The notes below the pieces were generated by a model. The model did no database searches. It was given only the letters and a program-made list of their open reading frames with translations, and was not told where the DNA came from. DNA of 61,084 nucleotides. Source: a virus (taxonomy: Duplodnaviria > Caudoviricetes). The stretch lies in IMG/VR virus record IMGVR_UViG_3300037313_001227, positions 1 through 61,084 of that record; one strand, 5' to 3'. The position numbers and the translations under genes were made by a program. Below, one piece after another: positions 5,374-60,601 of the stretch (the first letter of the stretch is position 1; the number at the start of each line of letters is the position of its first letter).

Positions 5374-5534
5374 AGATCGAGATCCGCGCTGTCGATAACG
5401 GCTTCATCACCCAACTCTTCGGCGATGTGAAAAACCCTCGCGTCAAGAAGCGCGAGGTAGTCGCCGGCTCGGTCGTCGAGCTGGTCGGCCTGATCGCCGA
5501 GCATCTGCGCAAGGTCTACGGAGAGGACAGATGA
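5370..5534 (+). CDS. hypothetical protein (54 aa)
   Basis: GTGA/ATGA coupling; N-terminus IEIRAVDNGF resembles that of the 5788 ORF. Confidence 0.55.
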   Translation: MKIEIRAVDNGFITQLFGDVKNPRVKKREVVAGSVVELVGLIAEHLRKVYGEDR

Positions 5535-5791
5535 GCCATGGCTACCGGGTGGGTGACGTGGTCCGATACGGCGAGACCTGGGGCGTGGTACGATCCCGGG
5601 GTTTTGACCATGGACCCATGGTTGATTGGTGGGTGGGTCAGTACAATTCGCACGCTACGGAGCAGTGGTACTGCCAAAATGGCTGCATCGCCGACAGTGA
5701 CCTCAGCGCGCCTTTTGCACACGACTACGCTGGCATCCCCGACCCCGTCATTGCCCGAGCCACAATGTACCAGCTCACGGAGAATATATGA
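5531..5791 (+). CDS. SH3-like small protein with the shared C-terminal motif
   Basis: YRVGDVVRY...WGVV; ends IPDPVIARATMYQLTENI. Confidence 0.6.
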   Translation: MSHGYRVGDVVRYGETWGVVRSRGFDHGPMVDWWVGQYNSHATEQWYCQNGCIADSDLSAPFAHDYAGIPDPVIARATMYQLTENI

Positions 5792-44495: not shown

Positions 44496-44499
44496 CAAA

Positions 44500-44628
44500 A
44501 TGAGACTGTATCTTAGCGGCGCACTGTTCGGTGTGCCAGTGGCGGCCGTTTTGCTGGGCGACGTTACCGCTATGCTGGTGACGCTCTCCATAGCTTTAGC
44601 TGCGACCTATGTCGCTTGGAGGTATTGA
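44500..44628 (+). CDS. small membrane protein (42 aa)
   Basis: Almost entirely hydrophobic; GGGAG RBS inside a palindrome copy. Confidence 0.55.
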   Translation: MRLYLSGALFGVPVAAVLLGDVTAMLVTLSIALAATYVAWRY

Positions 44629-45246: not shown

Positions 45247-45609
45247 ATGATGCTCGACCCCGATTGTCCGCTCGCGTTCGTGCGGCGGATCTATGTCGAT
45301 ACCTACGGTGACGCCTGCTACGACTTCGCCGAGAACCAGCTGGTTGCTGTGCTCGACGCCTATAGCGAGACAGGCAGCGATGTAGCTGACGTGCCCATCT
45401 GGGATGATTGTCAGTTTGTTGTGATCGGCGCCGACGCACGCGATCAGTTCAAGGACGCCAACTGGAACCCCGAAGCAGGCTCATTCTGGATCGCCGCCGA
45501 GGACGTAACTACTGTGCCGGACGATTTGGACGCGCGCATCCGTGCGATGGTGGCGCTGACCGACCAGTGCCCGCTCAATGCCGAGGACCTGTTTGTAAAC
45601 CATGTTTAA
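45247..45609 (+). CDS. hypothetical acidic protein
   Basis: Follows a palindrome copy; VPDDLDARIRAMVALTD near the C-terminus. Confidence 0.55.
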   Translation: MMLDPDCPLAFVRRIYVDTYGDACYDFAENQLVAVLDAYSETGSDVADVPIWDDCQFVVIGADARDQFKDANWNPEAGSFWIAAEDVTTVPDDLDARIRAMVALTDQCPLNAEDLFVNHV

Positions 45610-45922
45610 CAAACATGCCGAGCTTGCGAGGAGGCTTCACAAAGATGACCGCCCGCCGTGGGATATCGGCGATATCGTCGAATGGCTGCATGTGCCGGTG
45701 GCCGTGCTGTCGACGCCAGAGTTTCGCCACGCCGGTGGTCGAGTAGAGTCATGGTATTCACGTGCGGCATATCTGCGCTTGCCGCGGCAGCCGTTCGAGT
45801 ATCGGGTCGGCCAGATCATTCCTGATTTTCAGATGGGCGGTAAGTACGCTTGGGTCGCGCCGCTGACTGACGAAGAAGAGGCGCTGGTGATGCGTCTGCT
45901 GCTGACGGGAGAAAGTTTGTGA
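45602..45922 (+). CDS. small protein with the shared C-terminal motif
   Basis: WDIGDIVEW; ends PLTDEEEALVMRLLLTGESL. Confidence 0.6.
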   Translation: MFNKHAELARRLHKDDRPPWDIGDIVEWLHVPVAVLSTPEFRHAGGRVESWYSRAAYLRLPRQPFEYRVGQIIPDFQMGGKYAWVAPLTDEEEALVMRLLLTGESL

Positions 45923-46236
45923 CCGACGACGAGGGCATGTTCATGCGGCTGAACACCAACAGTTCGGAGCAGGTGCACGTCATGGCGCTGCACCTTGAGC
46001 ACTATAGCCAGTATGGCGGCATGGCGCTCGACCCCGAACAGGCTCAACAGATTGCCCAGACGTTGCGCCTGATCGCGTCCAAGGCTGACTACACCGCCGA
46101 GGCGTACAACCAGGTACTCGACAAGCTGGAAGATCGCATCCGCGAGGACGAGCGCTACCAGCGCATCGGCCGGCGGGTCAGGCACATCGTCACGTTCGTG
46201 GTGATCGCTGCGATCGTGCTCTCAGTGATTTTGTAA
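45919..46236 (+). CDS. C-terminally anchored membrane protein
   Basis: IVTFVVIAAIVLSVIL C-terminal hydrophobic segment. Confidence 0.6.
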   Translation: MTDDEGMFMRLNTNSSEQVHVMALHLEHYSQYGGMALDPEQAQQIAQTLRLIASKADYTAEAYNQVLDKLEDRIREDERYQRIGRRVRHIVTFVVIAAIVLSVIL

Positions 46237-46250
46237 AGGGAGTTCACAAA

Positions 46251-46505
46251 ATGAGGTTACGGATGTTCACTGACTGGCGCACATGGGGCGTCGGCATTTC
46301 ATTCGATCTCGATTTTGGTATCACGCTTGAGTTCGGGCCGTGGACCATCGAGATCGAGTGGCTTAGCCCATATACCAAGTTACCGCCAGAATTGAGAGCC
46401 AAGGTTGATGCGTGGAGCACGCGCGTCAAAGCCGACCCGTCTGCAGCCGGCACACAGGAATTTCTCGATTTCGCTCGGTCATTGAGGCGGCTCACAAATG
46501 GATGA
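46251..46505 (+). CDS. hypothetical protein
   Basis: RBS inside a palindrome copy. Confidence 0.6.
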   Translation: MRLRMFTDWRTWGVGISFDLDFGITLEFGPWTIEIEWLSPYTKLPPELRAKVDAWSTRVKADPSAAGTQEFLDFARSLRRLTNG

Positions 46506-46677
46506 TCGGCTAGCAAGGCTCATCGAGCGAGAGCCAGAGATCGCTTACTGGTATCATCTGGTCCAGTTCGACAATTATGTCGTGCGGTTCGAGACCTTCC
46601 GCCAGTTCGCAGAGAAACACCAGCATAATTTTGTAAAAGCCTGTGACGCGGAGATACTCAATGTCAGCAACAACTAA
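46498..46677 (+). CDS. hypothetical protein (59 aa)
   Basis: GAGG RBS; fills the gap between flanking ORFs; translated by hand. Confidence 0.45.
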   Translation: MDDRLARLIEREPEIAYWYHLVQFDNYVVRFETFRQFAEKHQHNFVKACDAEILNVSNN

Positions 46678-46873
46678 GCACCGTTACCCACCACTCGAGG
46701 GCATGCGCGAGAAGCGCCTGTTCCGCGATCTCACGCAGACCGACATGGGCAAGCTGATCAAGACCACCCAATCGCACTACCGCCAGATCGAGGAGGGCAT
46801 CATCCGGCTCGATGTGCATCGGGCCAAGATCATCGCCAACTTCCTCGAGTGCACCATCGACGAGCTGCTGTGA
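46661..46873 (+). CDS. XRE/Cro-like HTH regulator
   Basis: MREKR...LTQTDMGKLI..TQSHYRQIEEG...IANFLECTIDELL. Confidence 0.85.
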   Translation: MSATTKHRYPPLEGMREKRLFRDLTQTDMGKLIKTTQSHYRQIEEGIIRLDVHRAKIIANFLECTIDELL

Positions 46874-46875
46874 GG

Positions 46876-47151
46876 ATGAAGCGCTTGGCCGGCAGGAAAT
46901 GGCGGCTGCTGACGGTGTGGAACAATTCACCGACGTACGCTGTGCTCAACTTTCGGTGCGTCGATCAGGCAGAGCATATAATGGTTCAGTTTTACACTGA
47001 CACTAGTCGCGTCGAGTTGGTACGCATGGGTCAGGTCATAAGCCTGAAGCCAGAACGTCGCCGACGAATAGGTGACATTGCCCATCGAGCGATCGCGTAT
47101 CGTCAGCTGACGGATACGTGCGAAGGCTTCCCAGAGGTCGAGCTGCTGTGA
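46876..47151 (+). CDS. hypothetical protein
   Basis: ORF in the coupled chain. Confidence 0.5.
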   Translation: MKRLAGRKWRLLTVWNNSPTYAVLNFRCVDQAEHIMVQFYTDTSRVELVRMGQVISLKPERRRRIGDIAHRAIAYRQLTDTCEGFPEVELL

Positions 47152-47416
47152 ACCTGCCGATTGGCGCGATCGTGCGCATCGAAGGCGACACGGGCCTGGC
47201 CGTGGTCGTGCCCCAACACGTGGGCGCGCAACTATCAGGAGAAATGGAAGCTCGACCCGTTCTTGCGCCTGCTCGGCGGCAATGACCGGCGGCTGGTGGC
47301 TGAATGGGATGTACGACTGCGAAATTGTCCCTGACGACCAAGTGCCCGACCATATCCAAGCGCTGGCGATGCGCTGCCTGCTCGACCCGACGTTCATTCC
47401 GGAGATGGACGAGTGA
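47148..47416 (+). pseudogene. doubly frameshifted member of the SH3-like/C-terminal-motif family
   Basis: LPIGAIVRI start, then a +1 frame, then a second +1 frame ending VPDDQVPDHIQALAMRCLL. Confidence 0.55.
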
Positions 47417-47655
47417 AGATAATCAGCTACCGGTTCCACCATAACCGATGCGAAGCCATTGTCATTCGCAAGACCAAGGAAGGTGTGCAGATACGTGCTG
47501 CTCGCCACCCTAACGGAAGGTGGCACGACTACGGCCTAAAGGGCGCGCGTCTACGGCTATACGACGGCGATATCTCCGACTTGATAGAGCACCCCGACCC
47601 CGATGCGGCGTGGGCGGACTACTGTGCCGCGGTGCTGCGTGGAGACGTGTCGTGA
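47413..47655 (+). CDS. small protein with the shared C-terminal motif
   Basis: Ends HPDPDAAWADYCAAVLRGDVS. Confidence 0.6.
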   Translation: MKIISYRFHHNRCEAIVIRKTKEGVQIRAARHPNGRWHDYGLKGARLRLYDGDISDLIEHPDPDAAWADYCAAVLRGDVS

Positions 47656-47876
47656 GCAAGCTGATGGTGCGCCAGTGCCCGTGCAGCACCCCGCCGCACC
47701 GGGCGATCCAGACCGAGGAGGGTGCGTGGTGCGAGATCATCGACAGCGACGGTATCGTGCAGGCGTGGAATTTTATCGAGAGTGAGTCAATCGTCGAAGG
47801 CTTTTCGCACCCGTGCCCCGATCCCGAGCGCGCGCTGGCCGATATGACCGCGTGGCGGCTGACCCACAATTTGTAA
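47652..47876 (+). CDS. small protein with the shared C-terminal motif
   Basis: Ends PCPDPERALADMTAWRLTHNL. Confidence 0.6.
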   Translation: MSKLMVRQCPCSTPPHRAIQTEEGAWCEIIDSDGIVQAWNFIESESIVEGFSHPCPDPERALADMTAWRLTHNL

Positions 47877-47903
47877 ACAGCATTAACAAAGACGGAGAGA
47901 GTG

Positions 47904-48881
47904 ATGGCTTATTATGACGCGGCCAACTGGCCGGGTGTGCACACTGGCATGCTGAACTGGTGCATCCAGAACGAAATGCCGGTCGAAATCAACAGCTACG
48001 ACGACGCGCTCAGCTGGTGGAAGCGTCGCGGCGACGGCTCGGAATATCAGGGCACCAACGATCGCCCGGTGGGCAAGCGAGACTTCCGCAATCGCCGGAT
48101 GCGCCAGCGCCCCGATGGCTCGATCGAGTTCGAGTATAACCAACACGTGATGTGCGTCTGGCACCCCGACAAGACGATCACCGTGTCGCCGGTCAAGGGT
48201 TACACTAGCGGCATATTCGAGACGTGCATCATGCCCAAGGCACTTGAGGCACGTGACGGCCCCCGCACCGGCAAGTGCGTGCTGATCCACCCGTCGAACG
48301 AGCGCCATTACCGACTCGATATGGAAACCGACACCGGCAAGCACAACATCGCCAACCCCGAGATCATGGTCGTGCGCGCCGATCCGTCAGTGAACCTGCG
48401 ACTGAACGCCGACAACCGTTGGGAGCCGACCAACGAGATGCGCTGCAAGCCGTTCGAGTGGCTCGAGCTCAACAAGAGCGAGCTGCGCGAGGCGTCGAAG
48501 AAATACAACATTCCCGAGTTCATCCGCGCGATCGAGACGGCGCTGCAGATGGGCGCCGAGATCAAGACGTCGAGCGCCTACAGCGCGACGCAGGTGCGCA
48601 GCGCCACCGTGTCCAGCGGCGAGGACGTTCTGGAGCTGCTCGAACAGGGGCGGTTCGTCGAGGCGGCGTCGCTCGTGCGCCCGCGGGAGACGCGCTATTA
48701 CGACCACACCAATAAAAAGTGGGTCGTCGAGAGCCAGGGGCTCAACAGCACCGATATCAAGAAAATCCGCCACCGCGCCTACGAGGAGATGGGGCTGCTC
48801 TATCTCGAAAGCGCGCGGGTCGTGACCCTGCCCCAGTGGAACAACATCGAGCGCAAGCTGCTCGACTTCGGGGCGCCTTGA
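47904..48881 (+). CDS. hypothetical protein (about 325 aa)
   Basis: GGAGAG RBS after a palindrome copy; typical codon usage. Confidence 0.7.
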   Translation: MAYYDAANWPGVHTGMLNWCIQNEMPVEINSYDDALSWWKRRGDGSEYQGTNDRPVGKRDFRNRRMRQRPDGSIEFEYNQHVMCVWHPDKTITVSPVKGYTSGIFETCIMPKALEARDGPRTGKCVLIHPSNERHYRLDMETDTGKHNIANPEIMVVRADPSVNLRLNADNRWEPTNEMRCKPFEWLELNKSELREASKKYNIPEFIRAIETALQMGAEIKTSSAYSATQVRSATVSSGEDVLELLEQGRFVEAASLVRPRETRYYDHTNKKWVVESQGLNSTDIKKIRHRAYEEMGLLYLESARVVTLPQWNNIERKLLDFGAP

Positions 48882-48924
48882 GGACTTCACTCTGCTCAGT
48901 GATTTTGTAAATGAGGTTCACAAA

Positions 48925-49686
48925 ATGAAAGACGTGAATATCCCCCTCGAAGCGAGGGACTGGGATTTCTATCAGGCGTTCCACACCTTCTGCGGGTTCG
49001 CAGCGGACGGTTTCCGACGCAAGGGTAGCTGGGGTGTCAACCCGACACCGCTGGTCCTGTTCGACACCGGCGAGCTGATCTGCACCGATGCTGCGCCCGA
49101 CCCAAGCAAGCGTGGCGAATATCGCTCGGTAGGTATCTCGCTGACGACGACCAAGGACGAACGGTTGTGGCTGCCCGATGGGTCACCGGTCACGCGGGCA
49201 TGGCTTGACGATGCCGGCATGCAGTATCTACTGGTCGATCGCGAAACCAAGCGCGCGGTGCGGCTCGACGGCACATGGCGTAGGGCACCGGGCAAAAACT
49301 ATTACGGTAAGGAAGAAGCTGGGTCACCTGTCACTACGGGCATCCCGTTGCGCTTTCAGTACAACTGCCGCGCCTATATTCCCGGCCCGGGCCTGCCGCC
49401 GGTCAGCCATGAGAAACTCAAGGTCAGCATCCCCATCCAGAAGGCCGGCTACACGAGTGACGAGCTCGAGCACATCCACATGATCGTGGCGACGGGTCAG
49501 GCGGCGATGAAGCTGACCGACCACGAAGCGGTGCACCGTAACGCATCTGTTGGCGCCAACCCTGACGTGCTGCTCAGGTGCACGACGTGGCAGGACTGCC
49601 CCGAGGCACTGCTCCCCGCCCTTGCCCAATATGGTGCCGGTCGTGTCGTGCGCGAGTACGATTATCTGCTGACGGAGCAGGGGTGA
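48925..49686 (+). CDS. hypothetical protein (253 aa)
   Basis: GAGG RBS inside a palindrome copy. Confidence 0.7.
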   Translation: MKDVNIPLEARDWDFYQAFHTFCGFAADGFRRKGSWGVNPTPLVLFDTGELICTDAAPDPSKRGEYRSVGISLTTTKDERLWLPDGSPVTRAWLDDAGMQYLLVDRETKRAVRLDGTWRRAPGKNYYGKEEAGSPVTTGIPLRFQYNCRAYIPGPGLPPVSHEKLKVSIPIQKAGYTSDELEHIHMIVATGQAAMKLTDHEAVHRNASVGANPDVLLRCTTWQDCPEALLPALAQYGAGRVVREYDYLLTEQG

Positions 49687-49916
49687 TGCGTCAGGGTCAG
49701 GTGGGCAAGGTCGGCACGGCGTGGTTTCTGGCGACACAGGATGATCGCGGTATATGGCTATGCGGCAACGCTAGCTGCTTCAAGCGCACCCCGAAGGAGA
49801 CGATGCCGGAAAGCGTAGCGGCTTTATGGATACTGAGCGGTATCACACCAATACCGCCCGAGGAGTGGCCGTCGCGCGTGTGCGCAGCTGTCGCGAAGGA
49901 GATGCTGAGCCAATGA
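49686..49916 (+). CDS. small protein with the shared C-terminal motif
   Basis: Ends IPPEEWPSRVCAAVAKEMLSQ. Confidence 0.65.
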   Translation: MRQGQVGKVGTAWFLATQDDRGIWLCGNASCFKRTPKETMPESVAALWILSGITPIPPEEWPSRVCAAVAKEMLSQ

Positions 49917-50182
49917 ACTTTTCGGGAGCCGGCGTTGGCAGCTTCGTGCGCATTACCCGACTATATGTGAAGGGCTACGGCTATGTCGACGAAGTGATAT
50001 GGGCGCTCGTGACGGGTGCCTATGATCACTCTTGCTACATAGAGGTGTTCAAAGGTCCGTGCATAGCGTGGGGCGAGGACGAGCTGGATGAGGGGGACGT
50101 GGCACGCTTCATGAAGCCCAGTACCGCCGCGCTTGTAGCCTATACTCGATGGCAGCTAACTGGAGATAAGACACAGCCATGA
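49913..50182 (+). CDS. SH3-like small protein with the shared C-terminal motif
   Basis: GVGSFVRI...IWALVT; ends PSTAALVAYTRWQLTGD. Confidence 0.6.
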   Translation: MNFSGAGVGSFVRITRLYVKGYGYVDEVIWALVTGAYDHSCYIEVFKGPCIAWGEDELDEGDVARFMKPSTAALVAYTRWQLTGDKTQP

Positions 50183-50511
50183 TCGAGATCACTGGCGCGC
50201 AGCCGCCCGAGCATCGGCTTGAGGTGGGCGACGTGATCATGGTCCATCGGGAGCTTAAGGATAAGCAGACGGGCAAGCCGTTCACGTGGAAATATTTCGC
50301 GCTGATCACCGACAAGAAGAGCCGCAGCAACTTCGTGTTCCAGCACATCATTCTCGATGAGCGCGAGCGCGAGCCCACCTGGCTCTACGCGCACGACTAC
50401 GCAGGGACGAGCTTTCACATGTGGTATCTCGACCCCGACGAATGGCCTGACGGGGTCCACGCGTTTCGCACCAAACTCATTCTGGAAGGAAAGGTTGAAG
50501 GCATGGTCTGA
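50179..50511 (+). CDS. SH3-like small protein with the shared C-terminal motif
   Basis: LEVGDVIMV; ends DPDEWPDGVHAFRTKLILEG. Confidence 0.65.
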   Translation: MIEITGAQPPEHRLEVGDVIMVHRELKDKQTGKPFTWKYFALITDKKSRSNFVFQHIILDEREREPTWLYAHDYAGTSFHMWYLDPDEWPDGVHAFRTKLILEGKVEGMV

Positions 50512-50576
50512 GTGATTTACCGTCTTTTGTAAAAGCGTATTCACAAAACCCTTTAGTGACTGAAGGAGAGAGTAAA

Positions 50577-51614
50577 ATGACGATGCAGGTAATCTCGATC
50601 CCCGACTTCAAGGACGTCATCACCCACCTCGGCGTCAATCATCACCAGCCGATCATGGCGTGGGGCAAGCCGGGCGTCGGCAAGTCCGACGCGGTGCGTC
50701 AGGCGGCCAAGGACCACGGTGCTGCGCTGGTCGATATCCGGCTCAGCCAGTACGACTCGGTCGATCTGCGCGGCATCCCGGTGCCTCACGCCGGCATGAC
50801 CGTGTGGCATGCGCCGATCACGCTGCCGTTCGTCGGCAACGCCGACTTCGAAGCGCTCGACAGCAGCAAGCCGATCTTCCTGTTCCTCGACGAGATCAAC
50901 TCGGCGGCGCCATCGGTTGCGGCGGTGGCCTACCAGCTGATCAACGATCGTGCGGTCGGTGAGCATCGGCTGCTCGACAATGTCGTGGTGATCGCGGCCG
51001 GCAACCGTGAGCAGGATCGCGGCGTGACCAACCGCATGCCGACGCCGCTGGCCAACCGCTTCACCCACTTCGAGATCGACGTCGACGTCGACGCGTGGTG
51101 CTTCTGGGCACAGCAGGCTGGGCTGCCGGCGGAGGGTATCGGCTTCATGCAGTTCCGCAAGCCGCTGCTCTCAACCTTCGACCCGTCGAAGCCGGACAAG
51201 GCGTTCGCGACGCCGCGCACGTGGCACAAGGCGCTGACCTACTATGCCGACAAGTCGATGCCGGAGAACATCAAGCAGGCGGCAATGACGGGTGCAGTCG
51301 GCGAGGGTCCGGCGGCCGAGTTCTGGGGCTTCGTCGACGTCTGGGGCAAGATGCCCAAGATGAGCGACATCGAGGCCAACCCGGACAAGGTCAAAGTGCC
51401 CGAGGAAGCTGCGATGCGCTACGCCGTGGCGGTCGCGATCTCGAGCGAGATGACGCCGAAGAACACCGGTCCGTTCAACACCTTCCTGACGCGGATGGAC
51501 CCCGAGTTCGGCGTGCTCGCATGGCAGCTGGCGCTCAAGCGCGACGCGACCGTGTGCGGCACCAAGGAGTTCATCGACTTCAGCAAAAAGTACCGCAGTA
51601 TATTTGCACGATGA
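50577..51614 (+). CDS. MoxR-like AAA+ ATPase
   Basis: GKPGVGKS Walker A, LFLDE Walker B, AAGN sensor, PLANRF arginine finger, TPRTW. Confidence 0.88.
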   Translation: MTMQVISIPDFKDVITHLGVNHHQPIMAWGKPGVGKSDAVRQAAKDHGAALVDIRLSQYDSVDLRGIPVPHAGMTVWHAPITLPFVGNADFEALDSSKPIFLFLDEINSAAPSVAAVAYQLINDRAVGEHRLLDNVVVIAAGNREQDRGVTNRMPTPLANRFTHFEIDVDVDAWCFWAQQAGLPAEGIGFMQFRKPLLSTFDPSKPDKAFATPRTWHKALTYYADKSMPENIKQAAMTGAVGEGPAAEFWGFVDVWGKMPKMSDIEANPDKVKVPEEAAMRYAVAVAISSEMTPKNTGPFNTFLTRMDPEFGVLAWQLALKRDATVCGTKEFIDFSKKYRSIFAR

Positions 51615-51640
51615 GCACTATCTGTTATAGATGAAAATCT

Positions 51641-52264
51641 ATGACGTGCAACCTGACTGGCCAACGCTTCAACGCACTTACAGCTGTCGAGAGCGTTCGC
51701 GATCACCGCGGACGAGTAGCTTGGCGCTGTAAGTGCGACTGCGGTGGAGAGAAAATTGTGCTCACCGGTACGTTGCGTTTCAAGCCACCGCCGAACTGCG
51801 GCTGCGTGCACGGCGGAACACGTCACGGCCACACAGCACAAAACAGCAAGACGTGGCGCGCGTGGAACTCGATGCGGCAACGCTGCGAGAACACCCGGCA
51901 TAGACAATATAAGGATTACGGCGGTCGGGGTATCAAAGTCTGTGACCGCTGGCAAGTTTTCGAGCATTTCCTGATCGACATGGGTGAGGCTCCTGCGGAT
52001 CTTACTTTGGAGCGGCTTGATAACAACGGAGATTACGAACCAGCAAATTGCGCTTGGCGATCACGCAAAGCACAAAGTCGCAATCGAAGAGACAATCGCC
52101 AGATTACGTACAAAGGACAGACTAAGTGTTTATCGGAGTGGGCTGAGCAATACAGTCTATCCAAGAGCACGCTTAAATACCGCATCGATAAAGGGTGGAC
52201 TTTAGGTGAGGCGCTTACATTACCAGCTACCAAGACAAACAGTGTACTGCGTCGAGTTTTGTAA
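51641..52264 (+). mobile_element. free-standing HNH homing endonuclease
   Basis: WRCKCDCG, W.SMRQRC, YGGRGIKVC, TLERLDNNGDYEPANC.W; lower GC than neighbours. Confidence 0.85.
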
Positions 52265-52305
52265 ATATCGTTTACAAGGTTAGTGACTGAAGAGAGGAAC
52301 ACCTG

Positions 52306-53439
52306 ATGGATAGAATGCAGAAGGCCCGTGCGAAGATGCTGATCAAGCATCCGTTCTTCGCAACGCTGCTAGTGTCGACACCGTGGGAAATGGTGCCGGC
52401 CGATCATCCGACGATCACCACCGCGGCGACCGACATGGAGAAGCTCTACTTCAACGAGGGCTTCATGGAGAAGCTGACCGATGACGAGATTCTGTTCGTT
52501 CTCGCGCACGAGGTCATGCACATGGCGCTCGAGCATGGTCTCCGGAAGCAGGCACGCAACCACATGCTGTGGAACATCGCCTGCGACTACGCGCTCAATC
52601 TGGTGCTCAAGGACAGCGGCTTCGAAATCTGGAAGGAGGCGCTGTGCGACGACGTCTACAAGGGCATGTCGGCCGACCAGGTCTACGACAAGCTGCAGCA
52701 GCAGTGCCAGAAGAAGGGCGGTGGTCAGGGACAAGGCAAGCCCGGCTTCGGTGATCCCGGCGGCCAGCACCACTCCCCGATGCTCGGCGATATCAAGGAG
52801 CCCGAGGGCGCCGGCGACCCCGCGCACGAAGCCAAGGTCAAGCGCGGCATCCAGCAGAAGGTCGCCGCCGCGGCCAACGTCGCCCGCATGGCAGGCAAGT
52901 TCGGCGGCGAGCTCGAGCGGCTGGTCGGCGAGATCCTCGATCCCAAAGTGCCGTGGTCGCATATCCTGCGCGACTTCATGACCCGGGTGACCAAGGACGA
53001 CGAGCAGTGGTCGCGCCGCAACCGCCGCTTCCAGAACGTCTACCTGCCGGCACGGCACAGCGAGAAGATGGGCGAGATCGTGCTCATCGGCGACACGTCC
53101 GGCTCGATCGGCAACGACGAGCTGTGTAAGTATATGGCCGAGGCCGGGGCGATCGCCGAGGACGTGCACCCAGAGCGCATCCGTATCCTCTGGGCCGACA
53201 CGCGCGTCGCCGGCGAGCAGGTGTTCGAGGAGGGCATGCCGATCGACCCCAAGCCCAAGGGCGGCGGTGGGACGGACATGCGCGTGCCGTTGAAGAAGGC
53301 CGAGGACTATCAGCCGGAGTGCGTCGTGCTGTTCACCGACTGCTACACGCCGTGGCCCGACGTTGAGCCGGACTATCCGCTGATCGTCTGCTCAACGTCG
53401 GGCCAGGAGAGCCCGATCGGCCTGAACATCAGGATTTGA
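52306..53439 (+). CDS. DUF2201-type metallopeptidase plus vWA domain protein
   Basis: TAATD, LAHEVMH (HEXXH), WNIACD; DTSGS, GGGGTD and FTD MIDAS residues. Confidence 0.88.
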   Translation: MDRMQKARAKMLIKHPFFATLLVSTPWEMVPADHPTITTAATDMEKLYFNEGFMEKLTDDEILFVLAHEVMHMALEHGLRKQARNHMLWNIACDYALNLVLKDSGFEIWKEALCDDVYKGMSADQVYDKLQQQCQKKGGGQGQGKPGFGDPGGQHHSPMLGDIKEPEGAGDPAHEAKVKRGIQQKVAAAANVARMAGKFGGELERLVGEILDPKVPWSHILRDFMTRVTKDDEQWSRRNRRFQNVYLPARHSEKMGEIVLIGDTSGSIGNDELCKYMAEAGAIAEDVHPERIRILWADTRVAGEQVFEEGMPIDPKPKGGGGTDMRVPLKKAEDYQPECVVLFTDCYTPWPDVEPDYPLIVCSTSGQESPIGLNIRI

Positions 53440-53738
53440 TCGTGAGCAAAATGCTCAAGGCGGGCGACTTGATCATCGCCCGCCGCGGGAAGTCTGACGA
53501 GTCGTGGTGGGTCATGGAACGCGACGAGACCAAGGGCGATATAAACTCATTCGAGAAGAACTCGCACTATGTCTACAGCGTCACCGGGCACCCGCCCAGT
53601 GGGTTCGAGAAGAACCCCCGCACATCGTGGGCGAGCAAGGTAGTCGTAGATCAGGATGCGCGCGTCGTGCGTGTCGCCGACATCACTGACGAGATGTACG
53701 CGAAGATCGCGAAATACCAGCTGATAGGTGAGCCATGA
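53436..53738 (+). CDS. SH3-like small protein with the shared C-terminal motif
   Basis: LKAGDLII; ends ITDEMYAKIAKYQLIGEP. Confidence 0.65.
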   Translation: MIVSKMLKAGDLIIARRGKSDESWWVMERDETKGDINSFEKNSHYVYSVTGHPPSGFEKNPRTSWASKVVVDQDARVVRVADITDEMYAKIAKYQLIGEP

Positions 53739-54016
53739 GAGCGCAAGTTGGCGACGTTGTTCGCTGGACCCGAGCGTGGGGGCGTGACCTGCCCGAGCCC
53801 ATGTGGACATTGATCGCAAAATACGAGGGAGATTTTTTAGATGTCGCGCTGAACGACAGTGGGTCGGTTCGTGCTGGCGAAGAGGATATGGTCGAAGCTG
53901 TGACGGACTTCCCCTTGTTTAATGACTCCGCCGAGGCTGAAATCGTCAACCCGAGCGACTGGCCAGACTGGGTGTTCACTGCTGTCGCCAAGTATCGGCT
54001 ATTGGGTGAGTTATGA
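53735..54016 (+). CDS. SH3-like small protein with the shared C-terminal motif
   Basis: QVGDVVRW...PMW; ends PSDWPDWVFTAVAKYRLLGEL. Confidence 0.7.
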   Translation: MRAQVGDVVRWTRAWGRDLPEPMWTLIAKYEGDFLDVALNDSGSVRAGEEDMVEAVTDFPLFNDSAEAEIVNPSDWPDWVFTAVAKYRLLGEL

Positions 54017-54330
54017 CACCGACGAAGATCGAAGAAGGTACCGTGCTGCGCGTGACCAAGGCTGTTGAGGGGCTAAATAGCCAGCGCAGATTGTTGCAGT
54101 TGCACGAAGTCGGGTGGGCTGTGTGCACGGAGGTACGCGAGCGCGACCCTGAAGAGGGTGAGCAATACTCTGTCGACTGGCTGCACCCGACTATCGACGA
54201 GCGACCGGCGCTCAGGGAATGCCCATACGTGTGCCACTTCCTCGGTGACCGGTTCACTGTGCCGCCAGAAAAAGACTGGCCAGACGAAGTGTGCGTGGCG
54301 CTCGCCAAGCGAGCATTAATTGGAGGCTGA
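54013..54330 (+). CDS. SH3-like small protein with the shared C-terminal motif
   Basis: EEGTVLRV; ends PPEKDWPDEVCVALAKRALIGG. Confidence 0.7.
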   Translation: MTPTKIEEGTVLRVTKAVEGLNSQRRLLQLHEVGWAVCTEVRERDPEEGEQYSVDWLHPTIDERPALRECPYVCHFLGDRFTVPPEKDWPDEVCVALAKRALIGG

Positions 54331-54334
54331 GTCA

Positions 54335-54544
54335 GTGAAGCCGCAGCTCGGTGACTTTGTTCATCACCGTGTCGATCCGGCGTATCGCGGCTTCATTATT
54401 CAGCGGTTGCCTAGCTCATGTAGAGTGCGGTGCTCGAGCAACGGTCAACGGTTAGGTTGGCACATTGAGAATGCAATTCTTTGTGAGCCGACTGACGAAG
54501 AGCTGGCCGACTTTGTGAAGTGGCGTTTACAAAATGGAGAGTAG
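54335..54544 (+). CDS. SH3-like small protein with the shared C-terminal motif
   Basis: QLGDFVHH; ends EPTDEELADFVKWRLQNGE. Confidence 0.65.
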   Translation: MKPQLGDFVHHRVDPAYRGFIIQRLPSSCRVRCSSNGQRLGWHIENAILCEPTDEELADFVKWRLQNGE

Positions 54545-54821
54545 GCACTTGGACGATCTGATCCAGAAGCACGCGGTGCTGCGCGTCACGCACACCAGAT
54601 GGGGCAACGATGAGGAAGCTCACGACCCGCCGATCTGGGCCATTTCTCGAGAGACCGACAGTTACAGCGCCGGTGTCTACGTCGACTGGCTTATTGGCGA
54701 AACGAGTTACGGCCAAGGGGTGCTCGATCACAGTGACGAGTTCGAGATTGTGCCGCCTGACGAGTGGCCGGACGAGGTGTGCGCTGAAGTGGCAAGACGA
54801 GTGCTAGGAGGAGAAAACTGA
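54534..54821 (+). CDS. small protein with the shared C-terminal motif
   Basis: AVLRV...PIWA; ends VPPDEWPDEVCAEVARRVLGGEN. Confidence 0.7.
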   Translation: MESRHLDDLIQKHAVLRVTHTRWGNDEEAHDPPIWAISRETDSYSAGVYVDWLIGETSYGQGVLDHSDEFEIVPPDEWPDEVCAEVARRVLGGEN

Positions 54822-55147
54822 TGACATGGGCAGCTGACTGCAAGCCTGGGCAAGTGCTCAAGATCACCAAGATGGTGAACGACAAGGGCGGCGAGCTCGC
54901 GCTTGGCGAAGACAATGTCGCTTGGGGTATCGTGCTCGACGACCAGAACATGATGGTCTTTGCGGAGGTCGATCAGACGGGCTTCTACCGCGGGGCGCCG
55001 AACGCATCCAAGTGGGTGAGCCGTGTCCTGCCGACCGACTGGGCTGACGAGGACAGCGTGTGGGCTGACGCCGACGAGGTGCCGACTACTGTGCCGAGCG
55101 AGTTCTGGCCGATCGCGGCGCAGGCTGCGCTGAATGATGGTGTGTGA
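54821..55147 (+). CDS. SH3-like small protein with the shared C-terminal motif
   Basis: KPGQVLKI...AWGIV; ends VPSEFWPIAAQAALNDGV. Confidence 0.65.
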   Translation: MTWAADCKPGQVLKITKMVNDKGGELALGEDNVAWGIVLDDQNMMVFAEVDQTGFYRGAPNASKWVSRVLPTDWADEDSVWADADEVPTTVPSEFWPIAAQAALNDGV

Positions 55148-55148
55148 G

Positions 55149-55511
55149 ATGGCGCACGTTTCATTGCCTGACTTACAGCGTATTGAGAAAATTCTCTCTG
55201 ATGACGCTGTCATCGCCGCCGGCAATCTCAGCATGGCGGAAGATATCGACAAGGCGCGACTGGCCGTAAGCGAGGCGTTGAACGGCATCGCGACGCCCGC
55301 TGTGAACCAAGTGGCCGCGGACACATATGTGTCCGACGAGATCGAGATTGACAGCGATGCGGGCACGTCACCTAGCGACGAAGGTACGTGGGTGCAGGCG
55401 TGGGTGTGGGTGCCGTGGCCTGATTGCGAAGATTGCGACGGCATTGGTCGCGACGAGGCGGACCAGGAGTGCTCCAGTTGTGGCGGCTCAGGGAAAGGAA
55501 CGATCGGTTAA
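55149..55511 (+). CDS. hypothetical protein with a DnaJ-type zinc finger
   Basis: WVQAWVWV; CEDCDGIG and CSSCGGSG. Confidence 0.6.
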   Translation: MAHVSLPDLQRIEKILSDDAVIAAGNLSMAEDIDKARLAVSEALNGIATPAVNQVAADTYVSDEIEIDSDAGTSPSDEGTWVQAWVWVPWPDCEDCDGIGRDEADQECSSCGGSGKGTIG

Positions 55512-55819
55512 TGGCGCCAGCTAGGCAGGGCCACTACAAACTCTACGCCTACGTCTGCGGGACGGCGTGCGTCGAGAAGCCCGACGTCGACGGCACCGTG
55601 ACCTTCATGATGATCTGGATGAAGCGGCCGCAGCACTGCCGTTACGCGATCGTTGGCGAGTGGGACGTCGCCACGCACTGCGAGCGGATCCTCGTGTTCG
55701 ACATGTACGACACCAAGATCAGGGGTACGGTGACGCTGGTGCCGCCCAAGCCGCGGATGATCTGCAACGACGTCGACCAGGCAATCATGGCGACGATGAT
55801 GCTCTACGAGCAGGATTAG
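55511..55819 (+). CDS. small protein, paralogue of the 56113 ORF
   Basis: GHYKL...RYAI...VFD; ends DVDQAIMATMML. Confidence 0.6.
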   Translation: MAPARQGHYKLYAYVCGTACVEKPDVDGTVTFMMIWMKRPQHCRYAIVGEWDVATHCERILVFDMYDTKIRGTVTLVPPKPRMICNDVDQAIMATMMLYEQD

Positions 55820-55823
55820 AAAA

Positions 55824-56120
55824 ATGAACGAGAGCATGCAGCACCCGTTCGTCGAGGGTGATCTGGTCCGGTATGTCCGAGATGACGGGCGGGTTCGCGT
55901 CGGCTTTGTTGTGGATCCAGCGAAATTCAGCAACACGCGCTTCTCGACCAGCGGCAAGATCATTCGGCCGGAAAATGTGTGGGCATGTTGGACTGACGAG
56001 CACACCCCTGACTGGGCCGTTAAGCGGCCAACACATGCGTCCATTGATCGAGTGGAGGCGCACCCAAATCCAGATGCACTGATCGCGGATTACACAAAGT
56101 GGCGACTGCTCAATGGATGA
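55824..56120 (+). CDS. SH3-like small protein with the shared C-terminal motif
   Basis: FVEGDLVRY; ends HPNPDALIADYTKWRLLNG. Confidence 0.7.
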   Translation: MNESMQHPFVEGDLVRYVRDDGRVRVGFVVDPAKFSNTRFSTSGKIIRPENVWACWTDEHTPDWAVKRPTHASIDRVEAHPNPDALIADYTKWRLLNG

Positions 56121-56406
56121 GGCTTTCCTCGACCGGCCTGGCCATTACGAGCTGGTCTATGTCAGCCAGAGCGGCACGCGCAACCAGTGCTTCGGCTACC
56201 AACCGCGGACCGCGGATATCGCTGCGCACACAGGGGCAAAAGACCCTGCTCGTTACTGCATCCAGCTCGTGGGGGACATTTACGAGGTCTACGACCTGAC
56301 GACGCTCAAGAAGCAGATGTACGTCGGCGAGTGGACCATCGGTGTGCCGGTGTTCACGCACAAGGACCCCGATGCGGCGATTATGTGGGCGTTGATGAAT
56401 TTGTGA
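56113..56406 (+). CDS. small protein, paralogue of the 55511 ORF
   Basis: GHYEL...RYCI...VYD; ends HKDPDAAIMWALMNL. Confidence 0.6.
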   Translation: MDEAFLDRPGHYELVYVSQSGTRNQCFGYQPRTADIAAHTGAKDPARYCIQLVGDIYEVYDLTTLKKQMYVGEWTIGVPVFTHKDPDAAIMWALMNL

Positions 56407-56422
56407 CTGAGGGAGAGAGAAC

Positions 56423-56935
56423 ATGGGATGCGATATTCACGCTTACGTTGAGTACGTTGATTTCGTCGGCAACGACGGCGAGCCATACTGGTCGTGCTTG
56501 ATGCAGAACATCGGACACCGGGATTATGCCTTTTTCAGCCTGATCGCTGACTGCGGCCGCGGTCCGCATCGGCCTGTATTCGAGAACCGCGGATTGCCGA
56601 AAGGCAAGCTGAGCTGGATCACTGAGCGCGCGATGTGGCTGACGGTTACGGATAATCCCGAGCTTGCTGACGCGGAGGGCTACTGCAACGAGACGAACGC
56701 CTTGAGCTGGGGGCCGATCGAGCGGCACGGCGATTTCCGTCGGGTGATGCACCCCGACCTGCACAGCCATACCTGGCTGACCTGCGACGAACTGGCGCAG
56801 GTGATCGCGCGCTACATGACCGACGATCACGAGGGCTATCCGTACAGAGTCGAGTGGGACGCAGCGCTGGCGGCGATGTGGGCGCTCGAGGAACGAGGTC
56901 ACAAGACCCGTATCGTGATCGCGTTCGACAACTAG
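56423..56935 (+). CDS. conserved hypothetical phage protein (MGCDIH type)
   Basis: MGCDIH, RDY.FF, RGLP, HSHTWLT, RIVIAFDN. Confidence 0.7.
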   Translation: MGCDIHAYVEYVDFVGNDGEPYWSCLMQNIGHRDYAFFSLIADCGRGPHRPVFENRGLPKGKLSWITERAMWLTVTDNPELADAEGYCNETNALSWGPIERHGDFRRVMHPDLHSHTWLTCDELAQVIARYMTDDHEGYPYRVEWDAALAAMWALEERGHKTRIVIAFDN

Positions 56936-56960
56936 TCATTTTGTGAATGGAGTTAGCAAA

Positions 56961-57257
56961 ATGAAAGCCGGCGATCTGCTCCGCATAACAACGCTGCGTG
57001 GGCACGACCTTGAGCACCCGGTATGGGCGCGCGTTAAAGAGGTATACCCTCGAACGCGTTACAACAGTGGCGGACTTATGACCCTTATCGCCGGGCCTCA
57101 GCCGCTTCACTTGGCCAGTGCACGGTTTAATCTGCCGTCGAATGGCTGGGCGATCTACTCAGAGACTGACGCTGAGGTCTTCGAGGTGTTCAGCGGTGCC
57201 GATGTGCCCGACGAGTTTTATGTCGACCAGGCCAAGTGGGCCTTACTTAGTGACTGA
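56961..57257 (+). CDS. SH3/PWWP-like small protein with the shared C-terminal motif
   Basis: MKAGDLLRI...HPVWARV; ends VPDEFYVDQAKWALLSD. Confidence 0.7.
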   Translation: MKAGDLLRITTLRGHDLEHPVWARVKEVYPRTRYNSGGLMTLIAGPQPLHLASARFNLPSNGWAIYSETDAEVFEVFSGADVPDEFYVDQAKWALLSD

Positions 57258-57268
57258 AGGAGATGAAC

Positions 57269-57733
57269 ATGGGCGATCGAACCTACACCACGATCACGCT
57301 CTCGGGTGTGGTCAACGAGGAAGACGTCGACGAGCTGGTCGAGGCGGTCAATGCCGATTGGCTGACTTGCGACGACGGGCCAGAGCTTAATGATAACGCG
57401 CTCATGCGCGAGCATCTGCAGTGGATGATGTACAACCCCGAGTGCAATTATGGTGAGCTCGAGAACACGGAGAGTACCTGTCAGCGGCTCGGGGTCAGCT
57501 ACCTCAAGGTCTGGGCCGAGGGCGGTGGGTACGGACCCGGCATGGAGATCTACAACGCTGTCACCGGTGTGACCGTGACCTGCGGCGCGATCGAAGGTGA
57601 GCCGGCGCTGACGCTGAGCGACATCAAGAAGATCGGCGATGCCGAGGCTGCGATCGGATATCTCGAGGCGTTCAATAACTTCCGCGAGAATTACGGCCCG
57701 CTCGAGATCAAGCCGCTGGAGGATGCGGCGTGA
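57269..57733 (+). CDS. hypothetical acidic protein
   Basis: GAAGGAG RBS. Confidence 0.65.
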   Translation: MGDRTYTTITLSGVVNEEDVDELVEAVNADWLTCDDGPELNDNALMREHLQWMMYNPECNYGELENTESTCQRLGVSYLKVWAEGGGYGPGMEIYNAVTGVTVTCGAIEGEPALTLSDIKKIGDAEAAIGYLEAFNNFRENYGPLEIKPLEDAA

Positions 57734-58017
57734 GGGACGGTGACGTTATTTGCTATACGCACGGCATATGCGGAACACCGTACGAAACACCCGAGGTGTG
57801 GGTGATGGTCGTCGACGCTGTCAATCTGCGCGCAGTGAAGCTCAAGGGTCGGTTCGGCGGCGAAACTAAAGGTGTTATCGGCATCGGTGACGATGAGTAT
57901 TGGGAGCGTTGCGGTCGCGGAGGTCGACGTGTTGTGCCGCCGGAAGACTGGCCTGACGACATTGCCGAAGCAGTCGCAAGATATTGCGCAACTGTGTTGA
58001 CTGAGGGAGTAAACTAA
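57730..58017 (+). CDS. SH3-like small protein with the shared C-terminal motif
   Basis: MRDGDVICY...EVWVMV; ends VPPEDWPDDIAEAVARYCATVLTEG. Confidence 0.7.
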   Translation: MRDGDVICYTHGICGTPYETPEVWVMVVDAVNLRAVKLKGRFGGETKGVIGIGDDEYWERCGRGGRRVVPPEDWPDDIAEAVARYCATVLTEGVN

Positions 58018-58020
58018 CAA

Positions 58021-58197
58021 ATGAATGCACGAACCTGCAGGCGTGGCCACATTGTCTCCGGCGACAATGCCAAGCGGCGGCCGGCCAACCCCGACTATGT
58101 TGCGTGCCGGCAGTGCGAGCGCGACACCCAGAAGCAGCGCAGGCGATTGCGCAAGTCATTGATGGAGCAGCAAGATGGGATACGATCCACTAACTGA
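58021..58197 (+). CDS. small zinc-finger protein (58 aa)
   Basis: CRRGH...N...CRQC; GGGAG RBS; translated by hand. Confidence 0.5.
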   Translation: MNARTCRRGHIVSGDNAKRRPANPDYVACRQCERDTQKQRRRLRKSLMEQQDGIRSTN

Positions 58198-60564: not shown

Positions 60565-60601
60565 ATTTTGCTAATGCTGTTTACAAAATGAGGGTGCCGC
60601 G

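Follow-up and report, generated by a model that had tools for sequence, protein, structure and literature searches.

The window analysed here, a complete virus record of 61,084 bp from an uncultured soil phage, holds about 15 copies of an uncatalogued family of 70-110-residue proteins. We regard these small ORFs as multi-copy paralogs of one single-domain family, probably diversified small binders, an explanation that, taken as a whole, we favour with some reserve. An earlier sequence-only reading had proposed that a detachable C-terminal tail is carried by unrelated heads. This proposal was not supported, since homology extends over the full length in most members and the structural model is one compact domain. 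Best in accord with the data is an alternative offered by the same reading, in which the helix is simply a structural part of a single duplicated fold.

Members of the family and their genes

The ORFs and tails quoted by that reading were confirmed to be present in the window, and its grouping of 20 ORFs as one set was largely upheld, with 14 solid, two probable and one possible member, but three of the ORFs are not members. A leave-one-out profile test against a background of all 866 six-frame ORFs of at least 40 aa recovered 12 of the 19 candidates at E<0.01 and rank 1 or 2 (47413, 49686, 49913, 50179, 53436, 53735, 54013, 54534, 55824, 56961, 57730, and 5531). When profiles were restricted to the last 30 residues, 13 of 15 were recovered at rank 1 with E<=0.019, so the common C-terminal motif is real and lies far above chance. 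The genes are as follows, with E values of candidates taken from the full-length leave-one-out test unless stated otherwise.

5531..5791 (+): family member, 86 aa, outside the array and adjoining replication genes; E 2.3e-6, rank 1 (iterated profile E 8.9e-8)
45602..45922 (+): possible member, 106 aa, with similarity confined to the tail; E 11, tail-only E 0.012-0.12 (consistently the top non-member), hhalign E 0.023 and probability 2%
47148..47413 (+): family member, frame broken twice in the window with head and tail in different reading frames; tail ORF E 8.6e-4; ortholog unbroken in relative L006 (3902-4201); in run X10, a variant lacking 1 base at 47211
47413..47655 (+): family member, subtype 2, 80 aa; E 2.6e-4, tail-only E 2.9e-7
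47652..47876 (+): probable member, subtype 2, 74 aa; E 0.028, rank 2, tail-only E 8.3e-6
47901..48881 (+): upstream neighbour of 326 aa, no family assigned; no match in Pfam or PHROGs
48925..49686 (+): upstream neighbour of 253 aa, no family assigned; no match in Pfam or PHROGs; BLAST relatives in 4 of 80 metagenome loci
49686..49916 (+): family member, 76 aa; E 3.3e-5
49913..50182 (+): family member, 89 aa, presence/absence cassette; E 3.1e-4
50179..50511 (+): family member, 50179 type, 110 aa, directly upstream of the ATPase gene; E 0.0036
50577..51614 (+): MoxR-like AAA+ ATPase; Pfam AAA E 2.9e-7, AAA_5 E 8.9e-6, phrog_1297 E 1.3e-89
51641..52264 (+): HNH homing endonuclease between the ATPase and vWA genes; phrog_374 E 7.3e-58
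52306..53439 (+): DUF2201 protein with a HEXXH metallopeptidase-like domain and a vWA domain with MIDAS motif; PF13203 E 2e-48, PF09967 E 6.3e-19, phrog_1314 E 1.2e-95; H68, E69, H72 and D263-T-S-G-S267 invariant across 42 homologs
53436..53738 (+): family member, 100 aa, start overlapping the vWA stop; E 0.0029
53735..54016 (+): family member, 93 aa; E 6e-8
54013..54330 (+): family member, 105 aa; E 1.4e-9
54335..54544 (+): probable member, subtype 2, 69 aa; pairwise match to 55824 at E 1.9e-4 (20-sequence set), not recovered in the full-length leave-one-out or tail-only profile tests
54534..54821 (+): family member, 95 aa, chosen for the AlphaFold2 model; E 2.4e-10
54821..55147 (+): family member, 108 aa; E 0.24, iterated profile E 4.6e-9
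55511..55819 (+): non-member from a separate conserved family, usually directly downstream of the vWA gene; hhalign 0.1%
55824..56120 (+): family member, 98 aa, subtype 2 tail; E 5.3e-6, N-terminal part alone E 0.0047
56113..56406 (+): non-member, paralog of 55511; E 22
56961..57257 (+): family member, 98 aa, presence/absence cassette; E 1.6e-4
57730..58017 (+): family member, 95 aa, swapped for other members in the relative; E 6e-4

Three candidates were rejected as members of the main family. ORF 46849 scored E 93, and 55511 and 56113 belong to a family of their own, to which hhalign assigned a probability of 0.1% against the main family. The model of 55511 (pLDDT 90.3) has an order of elements unlike that of the main family; 56113 matches 55511-type proteins such as that of L030 (E 7e-6), and the 55511 type has BLAST relatives in 15 of the 80 loci. 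Among the upstream neighbours, the 47901 protein resembles a 270-aa ORF in an equivalent position of another locus (L024, 8320-9132), as read by eye from the ORF listings.

Conservation and fold of the domain

Outside the tail, the proteins had been described as highly divergent. This is true insofar as the tail is clearly the best conserved portion, but the N-terminal parts alone still ranked the omitted member first in 9 of 15 cases (E 0.0044-0.38), and in most members homology extends from end to end, including an N-terminal G-D-x-V strand and two Trp. Out of 1.84 billion proteins, 97 metagenomic relatives were found at E<=1e-3, nearly all of them matched end to end and 95 of them sized 76-114 aa. 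An alignment of 99 sequences is strongly conserved at G13 (94%), W35 (97%), W52 (80%), P79 (95%), D80 (90%), A87 (87%), and L91 (96%), and is poorly occupied in the loops 24-31, 43-47, and 55-62. For subtype 2 (47413, 47652, and 54335), profile comparison finds the tail only (25 columns, E 7.5e-4, probability 25%). This tail-only detection, as well as the stronger conservation of the tail, would also be compatible with a functional interface.

The AlphaFold2 model of 54534 is one compact domain consisting of a small beta-barrel and a C-terminal helix (pLDDT 87.9, pTM 0.77), with strands at residues 15-23, 26-38, 48-54, and 69-72 followed by the helix at 80-92. The helix is the most confident part, residue blocks 71-80 and 81-90 reaching pLDDT 95 and 94. 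Read together with the conservation, the model suggests a domain built as a small, SH3-like beta-barrel that an amphipathic helix with capped ends closes at the C-terminus; the shared motif would be the most conserved structural element of this domain. A Trp anchor would be followed by a P-D/E helix N-cap, the small-residue hydrophobic face of the helix would pack on the barrel, and a Leu-x-Gly C-cap would end it, with the diversity of the family located in variable-length loops between the conserved strands. Covariation was read from the 98 distinct tails that the pattern could anchor: where Trp precedes the Pro (55 tails), the residue five positions on is Cys in 43 and Trp in none, and where Val or Ile precedes it, Trp stands five residues on in 23 of 30. 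Identical tail residues share the same codon at just 58 of 116 positions, which argues for selection on the protein.

A structure search of two libraries gave no fold match at E<=1e-3. The nearest folds were small barrels, namely DUF4314 phage proteins (probability 0.99, E 0.06) and MazF (E 0.28), with ribosomal KOW-type proteins, Sm-like proteins, and a Tudor domain as further weak neighbours (best TM-score 0.45). In the viral library, the structures closest to the model were DUF4314 proteins of phages and plasmids (probability 0.99 and 0.95, target-normalised TM-score 0.69 and 0.56), which share the small barrel with our family. However, they measure 59-81 aa, align with 67-75 columns of the 95-residue model at E values that are not significant (0.06-0.4), and their Pfam family was matched by none of the 99 members.

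Cassette turnover and the ATPase/vWA neighbourhood

In the tree, window members are dispersed among metagenomic sequences, and the largest clades of purely window and relative sequences are ortholog pairs; the paralogs are old lineages. Their exchange as cassettes is seen both among near-identical phages and inside soil populations. A 95-99% identical relative (L006) lacks genes 49913 and 56961 and has other members replaced, and head/tail chimeras occur between the two phages: the counterpart of 47413 (L006, 4198-4431) has a different head on the same tail, and that of 53735 retains the first 26 residues with a different body. The same joints recur in contigs from independent soil and rhizosphere runs, at 49913 (49912 to 50179; runs X2, X5, and X10), 56961 (56960 to 57269; run X2), and 57730 (57733 to 58030; run X2), and a further joint leads from the end of gene 53735 into the tail-coding end of gene 54013. 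The same stretch has also been hit by the homing endonuclease in the window and by an intein-like insert in the relative.

The small genes do flank the MoxR ATPase and DUF2201 vWA genes on both sides, as had been claimed, and the identities of this pair were confirmed with Pfam and PHROGs. As to the suggested co-occurrence of the family with MoxR and DUF2201, the neighbourhood recurs in other phages, but 66 of the 80 metagenome loci, many of them short, carry the pair without the family, as do G005 and, in a profile scan of two loci, the cultured phages CRP-7 and nACB1. Among GenBank phage records, 498 contain a homolog of the vWA protein, and tblastn with four family queries found nothing in them. 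N4-like and other phages with the pair match the same two PHROGs as the window (phrog_1297 and phrog_1314) but differ from it in that the small family was not found by these queries or by the scan of the two loci.

All 80 loci were retrieved via the vWA gene, which confounds the neighbourhood evidence. An iterated profile matched 59 of 10,635 six-frame ORFs, every one on the strand of the vWA gene, and a second phage (L026) has 22 copies clustered about this pair, of which two separate its ATPase gene from its vWA gene. The slot overlapping the vWA stop is filled by a family member in the window, L006, L025, L026, L031, L042, and L044, and six of 30 small-protein clusters lie on contigs exactly equal in size to vWA-homolog contigs, the smallest being 3,683 bp. 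The 50179 type stands directly upstream of the ATPase gene in nine of 38 further loci with upstream sequence and one ORF away in a tenth.

Possible function and relation to known systems

We infer a binder function for the family, in which the barrel and helix would form a constant scaffold and the loops a variable surface. The paralogs are kept as a pool, from which cassettes enter, leave, and recombine within the early-gene operon of a soil-phage clade. That the family is linked to the MoxR/vWA machine is a plausible but unproven idea; the 50179-type subfamily, at least, would probably act as a third component with the ATPase and the vWA-metallopeptidase, be it as client, regulator, or specificity factor.

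The sequence-only reading had gone further, with the tail docking on a common hub, either the MoxR ATPase or the vWA-metallopeptidase, and the variable bodies selecting targets, so that the array would supply one machine for remodelling or degradation with a range of adaptors. We consider this a minor but distinct possibility. Apart from the conservation of the tail and its near-invariant Asp, it would suit the modular recombination described above (a head swap on a constant tail, a joint inside a tail-coding end), the 50179 type fixed upstream of the ATPase gene in three lineages, the members in the vWA-stop slot and between the pair genes of L026, and the intact MIDAS and HEXXH motifs of the vWA and peptidase domains. 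It also agrees with a survey of bacterial systems which, in the part relied on here, has vWA domains capturing a substrate peptide that MoxR releases remodelled, often with a third component beside the pair (Kaur, Burroughs, Iyer, Aravind 2020, eLife; PMC7159879). Against it stand the homology over the whole domain in most members and the single compact model, the presence of the pair but not the family in most loci as well as in G005, CRP-7, and nACB1, and the position of 5531, which in the record as given is 40 kb away from the pair. Moreover, helix capping and packing may account for the tail residues and the Trp swap, and the tail, read by eye, is absent from the ATPase and vWA sequences as a homotypic partner.

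In F-box adaptors the conserved segment is a self-contained N-terminal module that is attached to unrelated domains for target binding and docks on a known hub. Their families resemble ours in having many paralogs with one short conserved segment and otherwise different sequences, but here the segment forms the final helix of one 95-aa domain whose bodies are homologous, and the hub is hypothetical.

Alternatively, the family may have no functional tie to the pair, its members being autonomous accessory genes that accumulate in a recombination-permissive stretch of the early operon, with adjacency a matter of descent and gene order, which seems to us rather unlikely. Cassette gain and loss exactly at gene borders, the wide occurrence of the pair without the family, and the homing endonuclease and intein-like insert that target the same stretch would all be expected here. 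Seven of the 50179-type loci are one broadly syntenic group with 22-33 ORFs common to its long loci, so that adjacency in these seven is inherited. On the other hand, the 50179-type loci comprise three divergent lineages (the window, L031, and the L039 group) that share just 3-13 ORFs, yet this small shared set includes the 50179 type, the ATPase, and the vWA protein, with their order preserved, and in loci with one or two members every member adjoins the pair, the sole exception being L080, with its member at a distance of one ORF. That the proteins are instead nucleic-acid binders or toxin-like small barrels of the Sm, KOW, Tudor, or MazF kind is suggested by the fold neighbours but very improbable given their weak scores, the acidic-to-neutral majority (pI 4.05 to 8.69, below 7 in 16 of 18 members), and the fact that no single Pfam family was matched by more than one of the 99 members.

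The window shares several traits with the bacterial MoxR-vWA ternary systems as far as these are described in the portion of PMC7159879 used here: a MoxR AAA+ ATPase gene adjoins a MIDAS-bearing vWA gene, a conserved small partner gene is present (in the window, the 50179 type on the upstream side and the 55511 type on the downstream side), and close relatives have diversified, in some cases with a multi-copy small domain (DUF397). In contrast to the systems in that portion, the setting is the early operon of a lytic-type phage, the partner fused to the vWA domain is a HEXXH domain (DUF2201_N) rather than one of the effector domains of those systems, copy numbers reach 14-22, and the third components have no Pfam match and so, judged by Pfam, are neither VMAP nor iSTAND nor DUF397. 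In phage Bas54 a MoxR ATPase gene is reported, in the part of the study considered here, as necessary against a predicted defence system (PMC13716836), a likeness by gene type. No window member matched Pfam or PHROGs, and the family is thus new to both catalogues; most likely, its paralogs would equip this clade of soil phages with a set of small proteins that bind other proteins and thereby serve to take over the host or to counter its defences.

Members of the small-protein family and their setting

The sequence-only reading had proposed that about 20 small proteins around an AAA+ ATPase gene (50577; genes are named by their start coordinate) and a vWA-metallopeptidase gene (52306) share a C-terminal motif. 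The tails it quoted are present in ORFs of the window, and membership was tested against all 866 six-frame window ORFs of at least 40 aa. A profile built from eight clear members matched, at E<0.2, only + strand ORFs of the region and 5531, save for a single chance match on the - strand (E 0.06). Leave-one-out profiles recovered 12 of 19 candidates at E<0.01, and with the tail alone (last 30 residues) 13 of 15 left-out members ranked first (E<=0.019), indicating that the tail motif is significant; gene 54821 was recovered at E 4.6e-9 after two profile iterations with relatives included. Seventeen of the 20 ORFs named could thus be retained with differing certainty, while 46849, 55511 and 56113 were rejected as family members.

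Family members in the window
Solid (14): 5531, 47148, 47413, 49686, 49913, 50179, 53436, 53735, 54013, 54534, 54821, 55824, 56961, 57730
Probable (2): 47652, 54335
Possible (1): 45602

The member 47148 (47148-47413) carries two frame breaks in the window, its ortholog in a close relative is intact, and a 1-base deletion variant at 47211 was found in contigs of one other run; the broken frame may reflect variation in the population or faulty assembly. Of 99 members, at most one matched any given Pfam family at E<=1, and PHROGs gave just two single matches at E<=0.01; therefore, the family is uncatalogued in both collections. Full-text literature searches (DUF2201, the tail motif as letters, and N4-like/vWA/ATPase/phage; supplementary files lay outside their scope) returned no description of it.

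The virus record is complete or nearly complete (61,084 bp, CheckV 97%, GC about 0.61), and the array sits in a + strand operon with tight packing and frequent gene overlaps of 1-14 bases. Megablast of the array region against 50,697 GenBank phage records gave no match, and ten metagenome runs from soil or rhizosphere contain most of it. A small HTH_3 protein (Pfam E 7e-10), encoded amid the small genes that precede the array, may regulate the operon. A conserved element of ~24 nt with imperfect dyad symmetry is found immediately 5' of the start codon in at least eight + strand genes, and also at several cassette borders. Its 3' half, with up to 2 mismatches, gave 13 matches compared to 2.15 expected, a count reached by none of 100 shuffles, and the element could be a phage promoter, operator or translational control site. 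In the virion block, a 2,138-aa ORF matched solely PHROGs without known function, with profile lengths of 2,400-3,400 positions (best E 5.6e-33).

Features of the window outside the family
41.5-61 kb and 1-14.9 kb, + strand: small ORFs, helicase, primase-like replication genes and lysis-region ORFs
14.9-41 kb, - strand: terminase, connector and other virion genes
24706-31122, - strand: 2,138-aa ORF
46643-46873: small HTH_3 protein, candidate regulator
51641-52264: HNH homing endonuclease (phrog_374, E 7.3e-58), inserted between the ATPase and vWA genes
41540-41563, 44075-44098, 44479-44502, 46230-46253, 48904-48927, 54513-54536, 56940-56963, 60567-60590: ~24-nt element

Cassette turnover and a predicted single fold

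A close relative from IMG/VR (genome G004, locus L006, 63 kb) is 90-99% identical to the window over most shared stretches and differs exactly at the small genes. It lacks 49913 and 56961, has other family members in exchange for window 53812-54550 and 57733-58030, and contains two chimeric genes, one combining the same tail with another head and one the same first 26 residues with another body. Similar joints also appeared in contigs from four other soil or rhizosphere runs, for example 49912 to 50179 (three runs), 56960 to 57269, 53812 to 54550, and 57733 to 58030, and another connects the end of 53735 to a point within the tail-coding part of 54013; these were read from assembled contigs at 90% likeness, and single joints with short sides are weak. 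Cassette turnover is unusually clear in these natural soil populations, and turnover of that kind is typical of genes in conflict with the host. In a tree of 143 sequences, the window paralogs were dispersed among metagenomic sequences, and the only clades consisting purely of window and relative sequences were ortholog pairs, suggesting that the array is a collection of old lineages and speaking against a recent duplication burst, within the weak support that such short and divergent sequences give the tree. Gene conversion as the source of the conserved tail was ruled out; since a common codon is used at only 58 of 116 identical tail residues, the conservation is at the level of protein, not DNA.

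The sequence-only reading had likened the proteins to F-box adaptors, with the conserved tail docking onto a common hub and highly divergent bodies selecting different host targets. An autonomous module on unrelated bodies is contradicted by the N-terminal parts, the full-length relatives and a compact structural model. The divergence of the bodies was overstated: N-terminal parts without the last 30 residues still ranked the left-out member first in 9 of 15 cases, five of them with E<0.05. A profile search of 1.84 billion representative proteins gave 97 relatives at E<=1e-3 (seven being the window's own proteins or near copies), of which 95 are 76-114 aa long, and nearly all align over the whole profile. 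One metagenomic protein of 207 aa (P0086) is a natural tandem fusion of two family units. Conservation outside the tail among 99 sequences includes G13 (94%), D14, V15, W35 (97%) and W52 (80%), and the segments between the conserved body positions are poorly occupied and variable in length. AlphaFold2 with the family alignment gave a confident single domain (mean pLDDT 87.9, pTM 0.77) of four strands followed by a helix at 80-92, the helix region being highest in confidence. In favour of a modular tail, profile comparison detected the tail alone (25 columns, E 7.5e-4, probability 25%) in three short proteins of the P.PD...ADY..W.L subtype (47413, 47652 and 54335), although by eye a G-D/x-hydrophobic strand or a Trp is kept; most members, however, are homologous throughout.

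Conservation over the 99 sequences and the AlphaFold2 model summary, rather than coordinates, point to a structural role of the tail residues, with a Trp anchor followed by a Pro-Asp/Glu helix N-cap and a Leu-x-Gly C-cap, and V82, C83, V86, A87, A90 and L91 would form one helix face. Among 98 distinct tails, a Trp before the Pro occurs with Cys five residues on in 43 and with Trp at that position never, and Val/Ile before the Pro is followed by Trp five residues later in 23 of 30 tails; this count left out 41 unanchorable sequences, including all proteins of the 50179 type, the subfamily directly upstream of the ATPase. Such size-swapping supports a packing role of the tail, and it would also fit the pocket of a partner. 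Docking onto a common hub, with the conserved tail as contact surface, is unlikely in our view.

Fold searches with the family model gave no significant neighbour, small barrels being nearest, and an ESM Atlas look-up returned a best score of 0.80, which is noise level. DUF4314 phage proteins showed weak fold resemblance only (probability 0.99, E 0.06), and none of the 99 members matched the Pfam DUF4314 profile at E<=1. The best match among MazF/CcdB-type toxins was 7d2p_A (E 0.28, TM-score 0.45); with no significant fold match and no Pfam match, identity with these toxins was rejected.

The ATPase/vWA-metallopeptidase pair and its small neighbours

Gene 50577 encodes a predicted MoxR-type AAA+ ATPase: it exceeded the cut-offs of Pfam AAA (31.4 bits) and AAA_5 (26.2 bits) and matched phrog_1297 (E 1.3e-89), and 38 homologs retain the motifs G-x-x-G-x-G-K (Walker A) and D105-E106 (Walker B). 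Gene 52306 encodes a predicted DUF2201 vWA-metallopeptidase, matching DUF2201_N plus DUF2201 above the cut-off (PF13203, 165.8 bits; PF09967, 68.8 bits), with H68, E69 and H72 (HEXXH) and D263-T-S-G-S267 (MIDAS) invariant in 42 sequences. At E<=1e-20, a large protein collection contains 829 homologs of the vWA protein, and 498 GenBank phage records also have matches to it. The two genes are already known as a gene pair, and full-text literature on the MoxR plus DUF2201 pair yielded almost nothing. In 80 metagenome loci fetched through the vWA gene, the ATPase gene was found in 50, many of the remaining loci ending early, and among the 20 loci listed it lies upstream of the vWA gene on the same strand. 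HNH ORFs related to the one separating the pair in the window occur at other positions in 8 of the 80 loci. In the close relative, the vWA-peptidase gene (L006 8816-10858, corresponding to window 52583) carries an in-frame insert of ~300 codons, which starts with Cys and ends with His-Asn before a Cys, and a LAGLIDADG endonuclease-like ORF lies in a different frame; the Pfam matches, to a Hint-type domain (E 0.0042) and to LAGLIDADG_3 (E 0.0039), fall under their cut-offs, and the insert looks like a candidate intein.

Co-occurrence of the family with the pair was followed in these 80 loci together with the window, L006 and a further locus, L024, by scanning 10,635 six-frame ORFs with an iterated profile. 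We obtained 59 family matches at E<=1e-3, every one on the strand of the vWA gene. Members were found in 14 of the 80 loci; the pair occurs without the family in the other 66, many of which are short, and in three further genomes. One of these, G005 (ATPase 55% identical; CheckV 100%, terminal repeats), had no family match at E<=1 and keeps the ATPase, the vWA gene, a 55511-like gene and, by ORF reading, 47901-like and 48925-like genes upstream; the other two are the cultured phages CRP-7 and nACB1, whose 327 ORFs gave no family match better than E 0.18. In GenBank phages, tblastn with four queries drawn from the family returned nothing, which, together with these three genomes, argues against an obligate link. 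Tail-pattern scans of IMG/VR had found the family only in the record of the window and its close relative, apart from two matches inside a 618-aa ORF, and none of the matches in JGI metagenome contigs (33) and GTDB genome contigs (14) was confirmed; this scarcity is explained by the narrow pattern and the single-sequence confirmation, as members were later found through the vWA gene.

A 62.9-kb contig (L026), with a vWA protein 56% identical, carries 22 members around the pair (5100-18700), and in two cases the member lies between the ATPase and vWA genes. Most of the 22 have a variant tail in which Val/Ile precedes the Pro and Trp follows five residues on. In the tree, the 50179 type makes up a clean clade. 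Its gene is immediately upstream of the ATPase gene in 9 of 38 further loci (those with at least 450 bp upstream; three of the 50179-type loci are identical copies) and one ORF away in a tenth. These loci represent three lineages (the window group, L031, and seven loci that form one broadly syntenic group), which have few ORFs in common beyond the ATPase, the vWA protein and the 50179-type gene. The slot overlapping the vWA stop codon is filled by other members in the window, L006, L025, L026, L031, L042 and L044, and is occupied by a 55511-type gene in 15 loci. For 6 of 30 small-protein clusters, the contig was exactly as long as that of a vWA homolog, down to 3,683 bp, matching sizes being a proxy for co-location, not proof.

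The rejected candidates 55511 and 56113 are paralogs of each other and constitute a separate family with its own tail, the profile-profile probability with the main family being 0.1%. The gene is usually immediately downstream of the vWA gene, and its product combines a conserved C-R-Y/F-A-V core with an acidic-A-A-I-M-A-x-x-L-Y tail. The confident AlphaFold2 model (pLDDT 90.3, pTM 0.82) has an internal helix and an element order unlike that of the main family, and no neighbour was found in the PDB (best E 0.84).

The 55511-type family (~85-130 aa, uncatalogued)
Window 55511-55819
Window 56113-56406
L024 12602-12856
14 other loci

Proposed function of the small proteins

The small proteins form a multi-copy family with one domain, in which a constant frame (first strand, two Trp, last strand and capped helix) is combined with variable loops; their genes lie in an early-type operon and are positionally tied to the MoxR/vWA-peptidase pair in several lineages. 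Most likely, the frame serves as a scaffold and specificity resides in the loops, so that the paralogs would be small binders, each for different targets. Small early phage proteins with fast turnover usually act in this way. Pfam, PHROGs and the searchable literature contain neither the small family, with its size and cassette dynamics, nor the conserved 50179-type and 55511-type partners.

Since the position of the 50179 type by the ATPase is kept in lineages sharing little else, a working relation with the pair seems to us evenly balanced between true and false, and the 50179 type could be a client, regulator or specificity factor. Complex prediction that combined ATPase, vWA protein and Mg and took the 50179 protein as partner scored 0.31, the mark being 0.32, and weighs neither for nor against binding. 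In MoxR/vWA pairs, according to PMC7159879, the vWA domain captures a substrate peptide and the ATPase releases the substrate remodelled, often with a third component; in ternary systems of the VMAP type this is a protein with a VMAP-C or iSTAND domain, and the small proteins here have no Pfam match. One report describes a phage MoxR ATPase gene as needed against a predicted defence system (PMC13716836), and by analogy both sources would be compatible with a counter-defence role here. A bolder proposal is that the family members are exchangeable specificity factors of the MoxR/vWA-metallopeptidase machine, each bringing a different host protein, e.g., a defence protein, for remodelling or cleavage, with the 50179 type as the ancestral fixed subunit; we regard this as quite improbable.

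As a whole, the region appears to be a phage MoxR/vWA module with new small partner families, among them a solid and unusual one. The conserved small partner gene and the diversified family of 14-22 copies around the pair provide concrete handles on the pair. If the reading of constant scaffold and variable loops is true, the family would be a natural small-binder scaffold, and if the specificity-factor proposal is true, it would be a viral counterpart of adaptor-based targeting systems.
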